64,000 nt of DNA from Octopus sinensis (lineage: Eukaryota). The stretch spans positions 99,324,001 to 99,388,000 of the forward strand of contig NC_042999.1 in assembly GCF_006345805.1 (NCBI RefSeq). Direction: 5' to 3'. The notes beneath the pieces were generated by a model, which had not been told where the DNA came from, did no database searches, and was given only the letters and a program-made list of their open reading frames with translations. Numbering within the stretch: the stretch's first letter is position 1; each line of letters begins with the position of its first letter. Shown piece by piece: positions 1 to 59,722 of this stretch. The position numbers were made by a program, and so were the translations under genes.

Positions 1-227
1 TTCTAACATATATTTTCTCGCTGTGTGTGTGTGTCTTTCTCTCCCTTTCTCCCCCTCTCTCTCCCTATTTCTCTCCCTTCTTTCTCTTTCTTTCTCTCTC
101 TCTCTCTCTTTCTCTGTCTCTCTCCACCCTACATAGAGGACAATAAAACATCCAGACAGATAGAAGATACAAAGGCGGATAGGAAAAATAACAATTAGAG
201 GGACAGGAAAAAAGGACGGGTCATTCG

Positions 228-295
228 TGGCCTTCTTTCGTCAGTCAAGTTACCAGATGACCTTACAGTTTCGGGCAGTTACACTTGAGACTCTT
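228..295 (-). ncRNA. Putative non-circularly permuted hammerhead ribozyme (diverged version B)
   Basis: Minus strand reads AGUC^UCAAGU-guaacugccc-GAAACU...ACUUGA-CUGACGA-aagaa-GGCCA. Stem I UCAAGU/ACUUGA, stem III AGU/ACU, stem II UGCCC/GGCCA with one mismatch. Aligns with the 10477-10567 motif. Confidence 0.55.
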
Positions 296-450
296 CGATC
301 TGGTTGCCGTTGAACTCAAACGCTGATTTCAAAAACGGAGACAGTGAAAACTACAAATAATATGGATAGCTTGTTAGCAATTTAACAATCCAAAGGCAAA
401 TTTTTCTTATAAGCTGACAATGTGAGTTGAGTTTAACCCTAGGCGCCGTA

Positions 451-8475: not shown

Positions 8476-10485
8476 TATCGTGAACCTATGGTCATGTAAT
8501 GTCCTGCAGCTTGCAAATCTGGAAATGGACACCGACGCTGTAATATCTTTGATCAAAGTTGTTTTGAATCTATAATGATTTAGGACTAAACAACAAAAAC
8601 AGCAGTAATAAGCCATAATCACTTCTGTCATTGTAAACTAATGTATTGACGACAATGTTGGCGACCTACGTGAAATTTCTAGGTGAATATATTTCTTTCG
8701 AATTACATTATCAATATCTTTAGACAAAATATAATCGCCCCAATTTCTCAATTCCGTTTCTTCACTGATACATAAAGCCTGGGTGCTTAGAAAAAAATCA
8801 ATATATTTTAGCATAATTTCTGAAATTTTCACTGCTCAAGAAACGAGTACAAACCACGTTTCAGATTGTGCCATAATGTTCAAAAGTAATGCAGACAACT
8901 GAAGGAATCTATATGCGGTCGTTCAATCTACAAGAAATAGCAGCCAAATATCTACCTCAAATCACACCATACCACCTTAAAGAAAAAAATCGATCTTTAA
9001 ATAATGTAGTCTTTGAAAGTAATAGGGGATGATGAAGGCTGCTAAACGAATTAACAACAGTAACTATAATTACTACTTCATTGGAGGAATTTTGTCCCCT
9101 GTGACATTTCTAATGGAAAGCCGATGGCACCATGCAGGCGTCACTGCAGTCAGCTCTGCATCTAGTTGAATAGCCAGTACTTTATAACAAACAATTGCTA
9201 CATCTATAACGGAATTAAACTTTAAAATAAGCGTGTTTGAAAGTTTTTCAAAATAATACAAAAGCTTCTGGAATTGTTCATCTTGTTTCGTATTATTTTT
9301 TATAATTGTTAAATGTCAGCATTAGAACTGACTGTGCTTTGGATGATATTTTGATTCCAAAGAAAACGAGGAAAAGCAACTACTAATAACAATACCAACC
9401 GGCAATAACATATTTTTATTTCAAAATAAGGGGAAAGCTTGAGATATTAACATTTTCTATTGCTTTCATGGCAAATAATGAGAAAACAAATACGCGGATC
9501 AATTGTAAACACTAACTTCTAGCTATTTGCCAGTAGTGGTGAGTAAGACAAACATACGGAAATGGATAGAGATTTTAAACAATCACCTCATAAATTATGA
9601 GTTCAAATATTTGGAAAACATCTTATGAGCAGTATGTAGAATTCATCCCGTCTCATTTCAGCTTGCAGTCACATATGATAGACTTACGCATTATCCACAC
9701 AGAGAGATTTATCTCTTACACGCTTATGAAAAGTTAAGTTCCAGTATTTATGAATCTCTTGGAGTGCTAGCAAGGCCGGCTCAAGGTACCGGCAACTCGG
9801 GCAGTCATATATGTATGTATATATATATATATATTACTGTTTACCTATATAATCGGCGGCTACGTATCCACAATTGTCCTTATACGATAAGTATATTTTT
9901 TCTCTAGCATTGATGATACGACTCTATCTGTCTCTTTTTCTCTCTCTCTCCTCCCTTATTCCCCTTCCTTTCTTTCCCTCTCCATCCGTCTCCCCCCCCC
10001 CTCTACGTTTCTCTATCTCTCTCACCTCCAGCCCCTTCGATCTGTCTCTTTCTTCTCCTCCCTCGTCCACCTTCTCTCTCTTTTCATCTGTCCCTTTCTC
10101 CTGTCTTTTGTTCTCACGTGATCGCTAGCCGCTGTTGAGCGCTCTTTTCGTTTTCAGCAGCCGCAGAAGCAACACGTATTTGTTCGTCTCCCCGTGGCCA
10201 TTAGGCACAACTTCACAAGCCAGCCCCATACTCAACTCGTCCTGTCGAAAGACCCTTGTCCTACGTCCTGGTTTTGTTTGTTGTTTATTTTTTATTTTTA
10301 TTTTTATTTTTATTTTTACCGTTATTGTTTTTACGTTTTTGTATTCTTATTGGTGTCACGTATTCTGTATTTTTGTTTATGTACTTCGTTCGTTTTCCGT
10401 CCTCGCGTTGTATACATTCGAAGCTTTCTTCCAGGGGATCTAATGCGCTTGGCTTAGATTTCCCTTGGCGGGCTGGCCATATCGG

Positions 10486-10552
10486 AGCAATCTCAAGATT
10501 AATCAGCCGAAATTGCTAAGATGATCTGGTTCTTGACTGATGACTGAGGGCT
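10486..10552 (+). ncRNA. Putative non-circularly permuted hammerhead ribozyme (version A)
   Basis: AGCAAUC^UCAAGA-uuaauc-AGCC-GAAAUUGCU...UCUUGA-CUGAUGA-cugag-GGCU. 6-bp stem III, 6-bp stem I, 4-bp stem II. Predicted cleavage after 10492. Confidence 0.65.
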
Positions 10553-11270
10553 TCGAATGTCCCGTCCTGTGGTTCTTGTGTCGTCTCTGTGGTGTTTCAT
10601 GTTCTTGTCCATGTCTGTAATTATTTTTACTGTTTACCTATATAATCGGCGGCTACGTATCCACAATTGTCCTTATACGATAAGTATATTTTTTCTCTAG
10701 CATTGATACGACTCTTAATCTGTCTCTTTTTCTATCTCTCTCCTCCCTTATTCCCCTTCCTTTCTTTCCTCTCCATCCGTCTCCCCCCCCCTTCTACGTT
10801 TCTCTATCTCTCTCACCTCCAGCCCCTTCGATCTGTCTCTTTCTTCTCCTCCCTCGTCCACCTTCTCTCTCTTTTCATCTGTCCCTTTCTCCTGTCTTTT
10901 GTTCTCACGTGATCGCTAGCCGCTGTTGAGCGCTCCTTTCGTTTTCAGCAGCCGCAGAAGCAACACGTATTTGTTCGTCTCCCCGTGGCCATTAGGCACA
11001 ACTTCACAAGCCAGCCCCATACTCAACTCGTCCTGTCGAAAGACCCTTGTCCTACGTCCTGGTTTTGTTTGTTGTTTATTTTTTATTTTTATTTTTATTT
11101 TCATTTTTACCGTTATTGTTTTTACGTTTTTGTATTCTTATTGGTGTCACGTATTCTGTATTTTTGTTTATGTACTTCGTTCGTTTTCCGTCCTCGCGTT
11201 GTATACATTCGAAGCTTTCTTCCAGGGGATCTAATGCGCTTGGCTTAGATTTCCCTTGGCGGGCTGGCCA

Positions 11271-11335
11271 TAATCTCAAGATTAATCAGCCGAAATTGCT
11301 AAGATGATCTGGTTCTTGACTGATGACTGAGGGCT
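11271..11335 (+). ncRNA. Second tandem copy of the permuted hammerhead with an 8-nt deletion in stem III
   Basis: ccata-atc replaces ccatatcggagcaatc. The rest of the motif is identical. Confidence 0.45.
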
Positions 11336-11420
11336 TCGAATGTCCCGTCCTGTGGTTCTTGTGTCGTCTCTGTGGTGTTCATGTTCTTGTCCATGTCTGT
11401 AATTATTTTTACTGTTTACC

Positions 11421-11442
11421 TATATATATATATATATATAAT

Positions 11443-46989: not shown

Positions 46990-48450
46990 ATAATTAAAGA
47001 AATATGCTTTTAAAAACTTATTAACTATTAATTTTTTTTATATTTAACAAACTGTCACCAACCTTCGTTGAAGAAGTTTACTTGTATTGTGTATTTTGTG
47101 TCTAGAATGTATTTTGTAAGTGCTTCATTGTTCAACTTTTTGAATACACCTGTTCTGTGCTAATTGCGTATAGAGGAAGTTGGTTTTCGTAATGGTGTTG
47201 ACTATTTCTGATTTTGTTGCGATTTTTTAAGTATTTTTCTTTGTCTTTCGAAATTAAACTTTTTTATGTTTTATTTTGAAAAAAGGGGAATATTCTAAAT
47301 TTTCCACTTGCACAAATGTCTTGGCGTTTACTACATGGAATAGATGAATCTTTAATTTTCTATTAATACATGTCCCCCAAAATTATTCTAATTGCATTTT
47401 GCGTATGTGATGCTATAGATGAGGCTTTTTTCTTTGCAATTTATCTTTGCATTCATTTCTAACTCGTTCCCGCTCGTGAATCTTTTGGTTGTTCCTTGTT
47501 TAATTATTTTACATGTCCCAAAGCAAGGGTCCACACAGTTTGTCACCACTATTATTTCATTTTTCGATATGAATCTTGTTTTTGTTAGGCATCTCTTGAG
47601 ATTTGGAAGTTGTCTCTGGCTGTTGATGATAAGTAGTTTAAAAATTATCTGTAGGAGATTTGATCGTAGAATTAGGAGATATTGTCTGGCTGAGTCTAGC
47701 ACGTTGTAGTTCCTAAGACTGTAGGTGACTAGAAATGGAATATCTATATATATAAAACTCTAGTTGTGTGAGTGTCTGTCCCCTTCGATTTAGATTCCTA
47801 ACTCCTCCCACATTTTGCGGTGCAGTTTAACCAAATTCGGGTATCTTATAGTCGTGATTCATATCGAGCCCGTCTGACTATTAGCGCGCGTCAACGATGA
47901 GTCTACGATTTTAAAAATAATTTAACATCATTTTTTATTCCATTTTAATGCATAAAATGCATCGTGTGTCGATGGCGGCGGAGTTGGCGTCCACGCTCAC
48001 AGCTGCACCTGTTTGCTTCTCCCCCTTCCCTCCCTCGTGAAGCTGTGGGAAAGGGAGTGTAAAGAAATCAACGTCGTAATGCGTTGTGAAGGAAACCAGC
48101 GTTCTTTTAGAATAACGACTTCATGGCTTGAAGACACCAAAACAAAAATGACTAAGAAAGCCCGAATTTATAAGGGAAGTAACTCTCTAAAAATGCTTAT
48201 ATAGTTATTTCCCTTACAAACCCGAGCAACGCCGGGCGATACTGCTAGTATATATATATTTGTATTTCTGTTTTCATAATCAATGTGAGTGTTTCTCCGT
48301 AAGGCAGAGAGTAGGATTTCTTTTGCTTTGGTTAAGGCATGATTTATTAACCTTTTACGGGTATCACTGTTTTTGAGTGAACATATTTAGTATTACTAGT
48401 CGCTACTTTCGTTTACTGGAGTCTGTAACTATTGAGCATATAAGCCGATA
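46990..48450 (-). mobile_element. Penelope-like element fragment (Cys-rich linker, Neptune-like, plus GIY-YIG), interrupted by a Helitron
   Basis: IPFLVTY, IINSQRQLPNLKRCLTKTRF, CVDPCFGTCKII and INCKEKSLIYSIT..KC. Confidence 0.8.
47743..48248 (+). mobile_element. Non-autonomous Helitron (506 bp)
   Basis: A|TC 5' end, subterminal hairpin CCCG..CGGG, 3' CTAG|T, no TSD. The PLE coding sequence resumes on both sides. Confidence 0.88.
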
Positions 48451-48529: not shown

Positions 48530-48686
48530 CTCTCCTTGTTTTTTTCTGTTTCCCTTTCTGTAGAAGAGCGTAGGCTCGAAACGTAAAAGACCTTTTCTAT
48601 TCCTGAGCGTTATGCTAATACATCTGTTTGTTTTGTACACCACCTGTCTGCGTCTTTTGTTTTTTTCGTAAACTCTCCCCACACAC

Positions 48687-48719
<33 letters not shown>

Positions 48720-48850
48720 GGGGGAGAAAAACAAAAGACGAAGACTTGTGGTGCAGAAAACAAACAGATGTATTAGTATAACGATCAGGAATTGAAAAAG
48801 TCTTTTACGTTTCGAGCCTACGCTCTTCTACAGAAAGGGACACAGAAAAT
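48528..48850. mobile_element. Inverted pair of non-autonomous PLE pseudo-LTRs in (TA)n, each with a minimal hammerhead-like motif
   Basis: CTTT-CTGTAGA-A-GAGC-gtag-GCTC-GAAA-CG-TA-AAAG at 48554-48589 (+) and 48802-48837 (-). Confidence 0.75.
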
Positions 48851-49867
48851 ATATATATATACATAGTCAATATATACATACTTGCATGTATACATCCATC
48901 CATATATATATATATATATATATAATGCGAGACTATTCTGTTGATGATGTTTAAATTCTAATGAAAGAGGTTGAAAACTTTTACACTCAATGTAATTCTG
49001 AGGTAGAAGCAGGGTAATGCAGTGAGTGACAAAGCTGTATCTTTCAATTATAGGTTCAATCCACCCGATGGTAGGGGAACCTATAGAGTTTCTATTTACG
49101 TTGATTCCCTCTCACGGTATGGGTCGACACGCAAATATTATCTGTCAAAGTGTGGAGTCAAACCCTAGACCTCATAATTGCAAAGAGAATTCTTAATCAT
49201 ACGACCTCACTGCAATTACACACGCACTCACACACACACATGCACACGCACTCGCAGTCACACACACACACATACACACGCACATGTATGTACGCGTGCG
49301 CGCGCATATATATGTACATATGCTTATGTGGAGACTTGTGGTCTAGTGGTTAGGTTGTAGCACTCATGATCACAAGGTCGTGGTTTCAACTATTAGACTG
49401 GGTGATGCGTTGTGTTCTGCAGCAAAACATTTTATTTCACATTGCTCCAGAAAAATTCAAGTATCAAACATGAGTTATCCCGGGACAGACCAGCGTCTCG
49501 TCGAGGGGATAATATATACACCACAAAATCTAAGAAACAGGACTTACAAGCTAATGCCTCGGGAAGGACATTTAATCCCTTTGTTATATATATATATAGC
49601 ATCTATTGTCAAAATATCCGACAAAAATGCAACGTAGCTCTTGGCTCCGGTATTTCAAACTCTGAGTCGTATTATGACATGCATGTATATGCGCGCGTGT
49701 ATATATACATATATATATATACACACACACATATATATATATATATATGCATATATATATATGTGCGTGTGAGTGTGTGTAAAGTGTAACTGTCCGAAAC
49801 AGTAAGGACTTCTGGTATACTTGACTGAGGAAAGAATGTTTTCTTACCCTCTATTTCGTTTTTGTTC

Positions 49868-52694: not shown

Positions 52695-52817
52695 GGAGTA
52701 GCTGATTCCGGGTTCAGTCCCACTGTCTGGCACCTTGGGCAAGTGTCTTCTACTATAACCTCGGGCCAACCAAAGCCTTGTGAGTGGATTTGGTAGACGG
52801 AAACTGAAAGAAGCCCG

Positions 52818-52820
<3 letters not shown>
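52695..52820 (+). mobile_element. SINE family 2 head
   Basis: ggttcagtcccactg..gcaccttgggcaagtgtcttctactata..gacggaaactgaaagaagcccgtc. Confidence 0.9.
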
Positions 52821-52881
<61 letters not shown>

Positions 52882-53951
52882 ACATATACATATATATACA
52901 TATATATACATATACATATACATATATATATACATATATATACATATACATATATATACATATACATATACATATATATATACATATATATACATATACA
53001 TATACATACATATACATATATATATATATACATATACATACATATACATATATATATATATACATATACATACATATACATATATATATATATACATATA
53101 CATACATATACATATATATATATATACATATACATACATATACATATATATATATACATATACATACATATACATATATATATATATACATATACATACA
53201 TATACATATATATATATATACATATACATACATATACATATATATATATACATATACATACATATACATATATATATATACACATATACATATATATACA
53301 TATATATACATATACATACATATACATATACATACATATACATATACATACATATACATATACATATATATACATATACATATACATACATATACATATA
53401 TATACATATACATATATATACATATACATATATATACATATACATATATATACATATACATATATATACATATACATATATATACATATACATATATATA
53501 CATATACATATATATATACATATATATACATATACATACATATACATATATATACTATACATATATATACATATACATATACATATATACATAATATATA
53601 TACATATACATATATATACATATACATATATATACATATACATATATATACATATACATATATATACATATACATATATATACATATACATATATATACA
53701 TATACATATATATACATATACATATATATACATATACATATATATACATATACATATATATACATATACATATATATACATACACATATATATATATACA
53801 TATACATATATATACATACACACATATATATATACATATACATATATATACATATACATATATATACATATACATATATATACATATACATATATATACA
53901 TACATATATATATATATACATATATATAATATACATATATATATATATACA

Positions 53952-54030
<79 letters not shown>

Positions 54031-54079
54031 CATATATATATATAACATATATATATATATACATATATATATATTATAC

Positions 54080-54110
<31 letters not shown>

Positions 54111-54359
54111 CATATATATATTATACATATATATATATATACCTATATATATATATACATATATATATATATACATTATATTATATACTAAATATATAAT
54201 ATACATATATATATATATACATATATATATAATACATATATATATATAATACATATATATATATACATATATATATATATCATATATAATATATACATAT
54301 ATATATATATAATACATATATATATATATACTATATATAATATACATATATATATATAC

Positions 54360-54408
<49 letters not shown>

Positions 54409-55589
54409 CATATATATATATCATATATATATATATATACATATATATATACATATATATACATATATATATATATACAATTATACATATTATATATATA
54501 CATTATATACATATATATATATACAATATATACATATATATATATCATATATATACATAATATATATATACAATACATATATATACATATACATATACAT
54601 ACATATATATATATATACATATATATACATATATATATATATACATATACATATATATACATATACATACATATATATATATATACATATACATATATAT
54701 ACATATACATATATATATACATATACATACATACATATATATACATATACATACATACATATATATACATATACATACATACATATATATACATATACAT
54801 ATATATATACATATACATATATATATACATATACATACATACATATATATACATACATACATATATATACATATACATACATACATATATATACATATAC
54901 ATACATACATATATATACATATACATACATACATATATATACATATACATACATACATATACATACATATACATACATACATATATATACATATACATAC
55001 ATACATATATATACATATACACATATATATATATATACATATACATACATATATATACATATACATATACATACATATATATATATATACATATACATAT
55101 ACATACATACATATATATATATATACATATACATATATATACATATACATATATATATATATATACATATATATACATATACATATATATATATATACAT
55201 ATACATATATATACATATACATACATATATATATATACATATATATATATATACATATACATACATATATATATATATATACATATATATACATATACAT
55301 ATATATACATATACATATATTACATATACATACATATATATAATATACATATACATACATATATATATATATACATATACATACATATATAATATATATA
55401 CATATACATATATATATACATATACATATACATATATATATACATATACATACATATATATATATATATACATATACATACATATATATATATATACATA
55501 TACATATATATACATATACATACACATATATATACATATACATACACATATATATACATATACATACATATATATATATATACATATAC

Positions 55590-55620
<31 letters not shown>

Positions 55621-56801
55621 CATATACATACATATACATACATATATATATATATACATATACATATATATATATATACATATACATATATATATATATA
55701 CATATACATATACATATATATATATATACATATACATACATATACATACATATACATACATATACATATATATACATATACATATATATATACATATACA
55801 TACATATACATATATATATATATACATATACATACATATACATATATATATATATATACATATACATACATATACATATATATATATATATACATATACA
55901 TACATATACATATATATATATATACATATACATACATATACATATATATATATACATATACATACATATATATATATACATATACATACATATATATATA
56001 TACATATATATATATACATATACATACATATATATATACATATACATACATATATATATATACATATACATACATATATATATATACATATACATACATA
56101 CATATATATACATATACATACATACATATATATACATATACATACATACATATATATACATATACATACATACATATATACATATACATACATACATATA
56201 TATACATATACATATACATACATACATATATATATATACATATATACATATACATACATACATATATATATATATACATATACATATATATACATATATA
56301 TATATATACATATACATATATATATATACATATATATATAATACATATACATATATATACATATTACATATATATATATATACATATATATATATACATA
56401 TATATATATACATATACATATATATATATATACATATACATATATATATATACATATACATATATATATATATACATATACATATATATATACATATACA
56501 TATATATATACATATATATATACATATACATATATATATATACATATAATATACATATACATATATATATACATATATATATACATATATATTACATATA
56601 CATACATACATATATATATACATATATATATATATACATAACATACATACATATATATATACATACATACATACATATTATATACATATCATACATACAT
56701 ATATATATACATATATATATCATATACATACATACATATATATATATACATATATAATATACATATACTACATACATATATATATACATATATATATACA
56801 T

Positions 56802-56834
<33 letters not shown>

Positions 56835-57620
56835 CTATACATATACATACATATATATTATACATATACATACATACATATATATATATACATATATATA
56901 TACATATACATACATACATATATATATATACATATACATATACATATACATACATACATATATATATATACATATACATATACATACATACATATATATA
57001 TATATACATATACATATACATACATACATATATATATATACATATACATATATATATACATACATACATATTATATATATACATATACAATATATATACA
57101 TATACATATACATACATACATATATATATATATACATATACAATATATATACATATACATATATATAATATACATATACATATATATATATACATATATA
57201 TATAATATACATATACATATATATATTACATATACATACATACATATATATATAACATATACATACATATATATATACATATACATACATATACATATAT
57301 AATATATATATATAATACATACATATATAATACATATATATATACATATATATAATATATACATATACATATATATTATACATATACATATATATATACA
57401 TATACATATATATATACATATACATACATACATATATATATATATATACATACATACATACATACATATACATATACAATATATACATATACATATACAT
57501 ATATATACATACATACATATACATATATATATATACATATACATATACATACATACATATATATATATATACATATACATATACATACATACATATATAT
57601 ATATATACATATATATATAA
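52820..57620. repeat. ~4.8-kb (TA)/(TACA)/(TACATA)n satellite
   Basis: Direct reading. Confidence 0.97.
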
Positions 57621-57777
57621 TAATAATAAATATAAGAGAGTGGTCACTATATGGCTCACTCCAGCACCAGTTAATCCAAAAGGTTTCAACCACTAAAAAT
57701 ACATGTTTCCCATGAAAGTCAGTACGATTGTTAGCTCACACGGACAGGGCAAATAAAAAATAACAAAATACAGATTA

Positions 57778-57858
57778 TTTTGGGACAATTGTTTCGCTAT
57801 TAATGAATTAAATGTAATTTTACTTACAAAAAATCCACTTGTAGCTCATCGGCCAAAA
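57778..57858 (-). ncRNA. Type I hammerhead ribozyme (U4C core), inverted copy
   Basis: Reverse complement of 58156-58237. Confidence 0.75.
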
Positions 57859-58155
57859 CTATCTGGATGAAATCCACTCAATCACACGCCAGATTTTACC
57901 ATAACGATAAATACGCGTGTGGTTCAATTGATTACATCCGACGTTATAATTCAAATGCCCCAACTAACAGCGCGCCAAACTTTCACGGAAAACAAATACA
58001 GCATTTAGAAATAAATGCAGCATAATTATAATTAATTAATAAGGGTGAGAGAATTAGATACTAATTTAATAGTATATCCTTTCAACACCAAGTGGCCTAG
58101 TATTTATCGTTATGGTAAAATCTGGCGTGTGATTGAGTGGATTTCATCCAGATAG

Positions 58156-58237
58156 TTTTGGCCGATGAGCTACAAGTGGATTTTTTTGTAAGTAAAATTA
58201 CATTTAATTCATTAATAGCGAAACAATTGTCCCAAAA
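58156..58237 (+). ncRNA. Type I hammerhead ribozyme (U4C core variant)
   Basis: UUUUGG-CCGAUGA-GCUA...UAGC-GAAA-CAAUUG-UC^CCAAAA. 6-bp stem I, palindromic ACAAUUGU helix III, GUC site at 58229-58231. Confidence 0.78.
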
Positions 58238-58521
58238 TAATCTGTATTTTGTTATTTTTTATTTGCCCTGTCCGTGTGAGCTAACAATCGTACTGACTTT
58301 CATGGGAAACATGTATTTTTAGTGGTTGAAACCTTTTGGATTAACTGGTGCTGGAGTGAGCCATATAGTGACCACTCTCTTATATTTATTTTGTAAAAAT
58401 ATTATAATATGTTATAAAATATTATAATAATCCAGGTTTCTCGGAGCACTAGGCCACTTGGTGTTGAAAGGATATACTATTAAATTAGTATCTAATTCTC
58501 TCACCCTTATTAATTAATTAT

Positions 58522-58581
58522 TTATACATATATATATATACATATACATATATATACATATACATATATATATACATATAC

Positions 58582-58628
<47 letters not shown>

Positions 58629-59176
58629 CATATACATATATATATCATATACATACATACATATACATATACATATATATACATATACATATATATATAC
58701 ATATACATACATACATATACATATACATATATATCATATACATATACATATATATATATACATATACTATACATATATATATATATACATATAATATATA
58801 TACATATACATATATATATATATATATAATACATACATATATAATATACATATATATATATATACATATACATATATATATATATACATATACATATATA
58901 TATATATACATATATACATATTATATATACATATAATATATACATATATATATATTACATATATATATAATATACATACATACATATATATATATATAAC
59001 ATATATATATATATAACATATACATACATACATATATATATATACATATATATATCTATACATATACATACATAATATATATACATATACATATACATAT
59101 ACATACATACATATATATATACATATACATATACATACATACATATATATATATACATATACATATACATACATAC

Positions 59177-59208
<32 letters not shown>

Positions 59209-59220
59209 ATACATACATAC

Positions 59221-59252
<32 letters not shown>

Positions 59253-59722
59253 ATAATATACATATATATATACATATACATATATATATACATATACATA
59301 CATACATATATATATACATATATATAATATATATATATATACATATACATATATATATATATATACATTATATATATACATATACATATATATATACATA
59401 TACATACATACATATATATATATACATATATACATATATATATATACATATACATTATATATACATATACATATATATATATACATATACATATATATAT
59501 ACATATACATATATATATACATATAATATATATATACAATACATATATATATACATACATACATATATATATATATATACATACATACATACATACATAT
59601 ATACATATACATATATACATATACATATACATATATATACATATACATATATATACATATACATATATATACATATACATATATATACATATACATATAT
59701 ATACATATACATATACATACAT

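Follow-up and report, generated by a model that had tools for sequence, protein, structure and literature searches.

Does a short stretch near the beginning of a 64,000-nt segment of the Octopus sinensis genome (NC_042999.1; hereafter the window, meaning this whole segment) encode a hammerhead ribozyme with a rearranged core and, if so, how is this core wired and would its RNA cut? The question was raised by an initial annotation, which had noticed that the region resembles, on the opposite strand, a second site some 10 kb away and had proposed that paired changes between the two reflect selection on a permuted hammerhead. The match is genuine: window 303-213 on the minus strand aligns to 10477-10568 with 75.3% identity over 93 nt (E 1.8e-9), and CUGANGA, GAAA, their spacing and CGAAUGNCCCGUCC are retained in both copies. 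The best explanation, which we consider fairly likely, is that the minus-strand site is a copy of one subfamily (A) of a repeat, itself likely a Penelope-like element (PLE), whose stem II pairs with an upstream strand and whose core is predicted to be self-cutting.

Both sites belong to dispersed repeats. A search of the assembly (2.72 Gb in 13,516 contigs) returned 1,866 first-look candidates for subfamily A, the best 40 at 90-100%, and 990 for subfamily B, to which the second site belongs and whose best 40 are all identical; subfamilies C, D and E were recovered as by-catch. Against this background, the paired changes described initially prove to be subfamily differences: that beside the cleavage site (AUC/GAAAU versus GUC/GAAAC) is seen as G16.2 in 26/29 and C15.2 in 27/29 other A copies, and that at the distal end of stem I (UCAAGA/UCUUGA versus UCAAGU/ACUUGA, pair 1.6/2.6) in 27/29 and 26/29. 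Reversion of the two mismatches of the window copy in the subfamily A consensus had been set as a test, with a divided outcome. The stem III mismatch does revert, site 293 being a pairing C in 25 of the 29 other A copies (A in two, G in one, one uncovered), but the C.C mismatch in the proposed stem II is kept in 26/29 copies on each side. Likewise, the remark that the flanks do not align holds only for this copy, which is truncated at 308, and not for the A and B consensuses, which are identical at 64/83 positions in the upstream flank, 52/71 in the core and 26/39 in the downstream flank. Because the flanks are equally conserved between A and B, the core does not form an island of conservation.

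The strand initially assigned to stem II, which starts 5 nt past CUGANGA, is paired in 72% of cells across A-E (10 aligned copies, selected for their closeness to the respective consensus), compared with 93% for a different, upstream partner, which occupies 10471-10476 in copy B and has largely been lost to truncation in copy A. On its 5' side the motif extends ~60 nt further than first delimited. In the same alignment, four pairs of this upstream stem II show two-sided changes and both inner pairs are invariant G-C. The upstream stem comprises 5-6 of 6 bp, with G10.1-C11.1, in 9/9 family consensuses, and the canonical adjacent position offers a run of 0 pairs in eight of the nine and of 1 in the ninth. 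Within any single family the upstream pairing is no more than modestly improbable (shuffle P 0.04-0.37), and the best upstream register was searched for; we give it weight because its position is constant, directly after hairpin Z with 0-3 bases between. Strand swaps across families, between unrelated groups, yield 1-5 pairs.

The complete strand order is Y5'-X5'-hairpin Z-II5'-a5'-III3'-UH-I3'-short linker-II3'-GAAA-III5'-a3'-I5'-CUGANGA-X3'-Y3'. Stem I has 5-7 bp and stem III 4-5 bp plus an A-U pair, with two-sided changes in both, and the bases of CUGANGA, GAAA and the NUH triplet are kept in 9/9 consensuses and present in the window copy. Helices X and Y are 95% and 98% paired in the A-E alignment, with one-sided changes only, and hairpin Z reaches 85% over the six columns examined. 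In A, E, G and K, helices X and Z were read from alignments and folds. As a whole, the model is 94.5% paired versus 20-43% when slid, and its level of pairs with two-sided change is reached by 34/500 shuffles, although cell counts overstate independent events because the A-E sequences are related. When B is folded without constraints, XY, Z and the upstream stem II all appear (z -3.5; 0/200 shuffles as good). Covariation counts need to allow for the decay of CpG sites in D and E, where a CCGG turned into CCAG or CTGG imitates or disrupts pairs of helices II and a. A pairing of the 5' G-run with CCCGUCC lost its support once X, Y and Z had been found.

As the chain runs from A9 through X and Z to G10.1, a four-way junction is predicted inside the core, without any unpaired base in C, F and G; B has two unpaired bases and D one mismatch. 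In such a junction X and Z would stack mutually, and stem II would stack on the A9.G12 pair, as in any hammerhead. These comparisons make it highly probable that the architecture is a split core whose helices are kept through two-sided changes. Of the earlier proposal of a permuted core under selection across subfamilies, the S-G-C order and the linked changes in stems I and III stand, but not the plain permuted type with an adjacent stem II.

Table 1. Repeat copies and motif elements of subfamilies A and B located in the window.
Feature	Position	Strand	Basis or remark
Subfamily A repeat copy, 5'-truncated	133..308	-	match to A consensus begins at 308
Leftover of true stem II 5' strand (10.2-10.6)	304..308	-	position 309 is a foreign C replacing G10.1
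Helix a 5' strand (303-298); predicted kink-turn C-G-A (297-295)	within 291..303	-	
Stem III 3' strand (294-291), private C>G at 293	within 291..303	-	
GUC triplet; predicted cut 289/288; stem I 3' strand (288-283)	283..291	-	sequence; analogy to hammerhead core
Stem II 3' strand (278-273); GAAA (272-269); stem III 5' strand (268-265)	265..278	-	
3-nt bulge; predicted kink-turn G-A, A lost at 260; helix a 3' strand (258-253)	253..264	-	
Stem I 5' strand (250-245); CUGACGA (244-238)	238..250	-	
Helix X and Y 3' strands, including the strand initially assigned to stem II; partners absent from copy	222..237	-	
Head-to-tail array: two ~790-bp units of young subfamily B with short lead-in, then (TA)n	9834..11425	+	
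Complete B motif	10414..10560	+	alignment and folding
B helix XY	10414-10428/10546-10560	+	
B hairpin Z	10431-10468	+	
B stem II	10471-10476/10503-10508	+	
B helix a	10477-10483/10523-10529	+	
B stem III	10486-10490/10512-10516	+	
B stem I	10493-10498/10531-10536	+	predicted cut 10492/10493
B CUGAUGA	10537-10543	+	
Second B copy, 8-nt deletion spanning kink-turn and stem III strand	11247..11360	+	aligned part 11274-11351
A-type fragment, start 2-3 nt past predicted cut	49782..49836	+	

The window copy of subfamily A (Table 1) is 88% identical to locus L012 over 176 nt (133-308, minus strand). Through its 5' truncation it is without helices X, Y and Z and without position 10.1, so that the R10.1-Y11.1 pair beside GAAA is lost, and its motif carries two private changes, at 293 in stem III and at 260 in the kink-turn, where the A of a predicted G.A pair is gone, a lesion that had escaped the initial annotation. 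Its folding is no better than that of shuffles (z +1.0). Because of the truncation at 308 together with the stem III and kink-turn mutations, we judge this copy very likely dead, as had been suspected, and by itself it would make no cut.

No credible ORF was found in the B units (9834..11425; unit ~790 bp). Contigs from four sequencing runs (X1, X8, X14, X17) match the B region at window 10330-10660, and no listed run is on record as RNA; one of the contigs starts at 10493, but contig ends carry no weight as evidence. B and its relatives are present in runs under five organism labels, and loose ends of the contigs reveal further variants of this region. Upstream of the motif, a small GUC-GAAA-GAC hairpin (window 10244-10254) lies in a block conserved across A-D; in A, C and D the hairpin precedes the cut by ~190 nt. 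Elsewhere in the window, a MITE-like long imperfect inverted repeat with a (TA)n centre occupies 48567-48824, and at ~52800-59700 a simple repeat of low GC content and extreme GC skew continues for several kb.

What kind of repeat carries the motif? Excluding one double count and the stretch adjoining the window, 79 stretches of 10 kb, placed arbitrarily on the first 20 contigs, contain six copies of families A-H, which extrapolates to ~20,000 copies per genome (range roughly 8,000-45,000). In A-E, copies end at a fixed 3' position, after which (TA)n follows, are truncated to a variable extent at the 5' side and have tandem or inverted neighbours; fixed 3' ends, 5' truncation, partial tandems and inverted copies are the hallmarks of PLEs, and this high-copy, non-coding repeat is likely a non-autonomous member of the group. 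Sequence ties of A-C to an autonomous PLE were found neither among 50 GIY-YIG loci nor by tblastn, and the search for an autonomous partner of A-E was equally negative. The autonomous PLEs that were recovered encode 775-781-aa ORFs (RVT_1 and GIY-YIG), and the split-core motif is absent from them; motif matches at L268 and L295 are nested family-F insertions. A decayed fragment resembling the C-terminal part of a PLE protein is present in the window itself at 47367-47741 on the minus strand (tblastn E 8e-10).

Hammerhead-like motifs of another kind were encountered along the way. The family with the 781-aa reverse transcriptase plus GIY-YIG (L291, L292, L297, L288) shows, by eye, a type I hammerhead-like variant ~75 nt before its 3' end, in which UUGAUAA replaces CUGANGA (a U3-A8 swap), stem II has 5 bp and stem III is the palindrome CAUG. 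A motif resembling a canonical type I hammerhead lies in one of the arbitrary stretches (L134, minus strand, ~8070); its stems I and II have 5 bp each, its stem III is palindromic, and L304 and L306 hold related motifs.

The split-core layout is not confined to A-E. A structure search recovered the identical layout in families F, G and H, plus K, with little sequence likeness to A-E. With the descriptor, the fetched loci, 1.27 Mb that are enriched by design, produced 145 matches, and 2.32 Mb of shuffled DNA produced 2; the first 400 kb of the arbitrary stretches, whose copies are decayed, produced none. Family K matches the published end of Naiad_Obim, a 21-mer from that end occurring 280 times here and its reversed control 0 times; sequence matching to a published Naiad is confined to K, and A-H have organisation alone in common with Naiads. 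Two further split-core subfamilies occur in single copy, L334 (minus strand, near 2863) and L370 (plus strand, near 970), one with the kink-turn pattern and one with AGUA/GAA.

Could a simpler wiring account for these data? The first proposal was in effect a plain type SGC hammerhead, with the stem II 5' strand following CUGANGA after a 5-nt insertion. Runs of four pairs in B and of five in E can indeed be drawn, two pairs showing two-sided change, but, besides the lower pairing noted above, the run shrinks to two pairs in A and one in C and D (a collapse in C), the C.C mismatch is fixed in the consensus, and in B the strand in question sits within a 15-bp helix; moreover, known alignments tolerate at most 1-2 inserted bases at that place. 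We therefore regard this wiring as very improbable. That the whole resemblance arose by chance or by neutral drift within a repeat is in keeping with a core no better conserved than its flanks, yet it is hardly conceivable given nine families with different helix sequences, the shuffled controls and covariation across unrelated families. Metagenomes point the same way: a pattern scan gave 66 loci, none combining a 4-pair stem III with a stem I of at least 5 pairs, so these loci are put down to chance, and 0/66 have both stems. An Rfam scan showed no hammerhead or other ribozyme among the best 150 of 251 matches, and its miRNA matches were microsatellite-driven and below gathering scores. Other assignments were rejected by inspection: an HDV-like fold (a P1/P3/L3 double pseudoknot upstream of CGAAU), as CGAAUG pairs with an upstream CAUUCG that is 98% paired; a type I reading using the downstream GAAU; a ribozyme on the minus strand; and a twister.

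With the upstream-paired split core as the preferred reading, the manner in which the fold closes becomes the next question. The possible extra helix of the initial annotation (our helix a) exists, with 95.5% of cells paired in A-E and a fixed U.C mismatch in B; an apparent CCAUA/UAUGG compensation within it was discarded, being present in a single copy (L049) and gone in the D consensus. Helix a prolongs stem III and is connected at its far end to stems I and II through 0-2 bases; a helix joining the far ends of these two stems is also present in F, G, H and K. The joint between stem III and helix a shows the standard kink-turn pattern in A-E and K, namely a 3-nt bulge and then tandem G.A and A.G pairs. 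Families F, G and H are without a standard kink-turn, having an AGUA/GAA loop (F, G) or a near-symmetric loop (H), and look straight at this place. The AGUA/GAA loop is presumably loop-E-like. A 3-nt bulge followed by G.A pairs is the pattern described for kink-turns in PMC5435971, and A (3b=C) and B-D (3n=G) conform through different bases to the ion-folding rule as given in PMC4382518; at 3b.3n, E and K carry U.U. The counterpart of helix a in type SGC is the stem I-II interaction helix, reported as required there (PMC10085705).

Hence, in A-E and K, the kink-turn would bend stem III back and helix a would clamp the far ends of stems I and II, closing the fold within one molecule, a prediction that we rate as somewhat better than even if the motif is active; for the family of the window copy, such a cis fold is plausible as a model. 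Alternatively, the same helices might need two copies to form an active site, with the hairpin loop of one unit (cut site, I3', II3', GAAA) docking into the internal loop of another (II5', I5', CUGANGA), so that only tandem precursors would cut; this differs from the best explanation solely in cis folding. It would suit F, G and H, where stem III and helix a form a roughly straight 16-17-bp helix that cannot fold back with 0-2-nt linkers, as well as one published Naiad end in which a 9-bp stem III is joined to helix a via a single bulged base. Tandem insertions are frequent, small Penelope hammerheads are described as cleaving as dimers, and an equal distance puzzle is noted by Eckert et al. 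(PMC10085705). Conversely, the kink-turn consensus is kept in A-E, K and L334, and other published Naiad ends have a 7-nt bulge at that place, both as a cis U-turn needs; single-stranded linkers could also bridge the distance. On the whole, docking between two copies appears rather unlikely but is a rival to be taken seriously.

The RNA is predicted to cut itself just after the NUH triplet, which we hold to be quite likely, with genomic sequence offering indirect and mixed signs of it. In family F, 7/29 insertions begin at +7 to +12 past the predicted cut and none between +6 and -61, against an expectation of 0.6-0.8 under uniform truncation (P about 1e-5 to 1e-6; ranking of copies used only the sequence starting 9 nt past the cut; query source dropped, n=29). 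An unbiased search with the 3' part of B returned no candidates. The cluster sits at the first TA past the cut, as would be expected for run-off followed by joining to (TA)n, but it could also reflect stalling of the reverse transcriptase at the structure combined with microhomology. In family K, 0/20 insertion starts lie near the cut (first 20 of 280 matches), and the by-catch copies show a mild excess, with ~6 ends at 0 to +12 versus ~3 per equal interval nearby. B and F arrays run seamlessly through the cut sites, often exceeding one unit. For these copies a cut linear template is thereby excluded, and either circles or uncut multimers would fit. One route would be that two successive units are cut and rejoined into a unit-length circle, which a partner reverse transcriptase would copy from a fixed site into (TA)n, producing seamless arrays longer than one unit; we give this route about an even chance of being correct.

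These same observations bear on whether the fold is conserved without unaided cutting in cells, serving as a signal for reverse transcriptase binding or packaging, or cutting only with a partner protein. Arrays that span intact cut sites and the lack of a 5'-end pile-up in K would follow naturally from such a role, for which the Anolis Penelope hammerhead offers a parallel, needing protein to cut and being dispensable for insertion in vitro according to PMC11167929; in the permutation work available, the A9-10.1 opening is also without tested precedent. Nevertheless, all nine consensuses retain every catalytic position and the NUH triplet despite their different helices, and the 5' ends of F cluster shortly past the cut, so that we deem a role of this kind unlikely and retain the self-cutting core as the preferred reading.

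How does this motif relate to known hammerheads? Eckert et al. 2023 (PMC10085705) describe six permutations, in which block C is assumed never to be interrupted, and type SGC is reported there from metatranscriptomes only. Like that type (HRIMA-1 and variants in the same paper), the octopus motif has the S-G-C order, three crossing stems, a full core, a short linker between stems I and II and a helix clamping their other ends. Unlike it, block C is split, the stem II 5' strand comes first, the chain exits at A9/10.1 via X and Z, and stem III joins the clamp helix on both strands; the motif resides in an animal genome. By this comparison it equals a type SGC whose ends have been joined and whose chain has been reopened at A9/10.1, in other words a circular permutation of the non-circular type, and its S-G-C order, in place of the circular block order with nested stems, sets it apart from Rfam types I, II and III. 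Since the permutation rules assume CUGANGA and the stem II strand to be inseparable, current descriptors miss the split-core form, and no description of this layout was found in the literature on hammerhead permutations, Penelope and Naiad, a body in which subscription journals are mostly uncovered. If cutting is confirmed, this would represent a new hammerhead topology, and would place non-circular hammerheads at high copy in an animal genome, beyond environmental RNA; the exit arm at A9/10.1 is a possible new graft site for switches.

With Penelope hammerheads and non-LTR retrozymes, as presented in bioRxiv 10.64898/2026.07.22.740005 and PMC11167929, the repeat shares tandem arrays, 5' truncation, AT-rich targets and the placement of the motif close to the 3' end of a non-coding unit. 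Theirs are of type I (C-G-S order) with an adjacent stem II, whereas the units here, of ~790-850 bp, with many copies being dispersed fragments, each bear one motif that is not type I, and thus fall outside the retrozyme definition. Through insertion ends and circles, split-core repeats make the role of Penelope hammerheads testable.

The closest parallel is provided by the Naiad PLEs, with which the repeats share the (TA)n target, partial tandems and inverted copies (PMC8557442). In that study, Craig et al. 2021 report no canonical hammerhead in Naiads and flag eight as 'HHR_half_core'. By eye, the split-core layout is present in the Naiad_Obim end, in three near-identical supplement records and in three unnamed ones (search matches, no census); not every Naiad has it, because three other supplement records show a C-then-G order with an adjacent stem II. 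Judging from these ends, the split-core motif is likely the ribozyme that Naiads were reported to lack, which would explain their 'half cores'. The fullest version of this proposal, that it constitutes a seventh natural hammerhead wiring, opened at A9/10.1, closed by a kink-turn or by two copies, active in cells, supplying the missing ribozyme of many Naiads in invertebrates at large and making, from tandem transcripts, circles that are retrocopied into the genome, seems to us as apt to hold as to fail.
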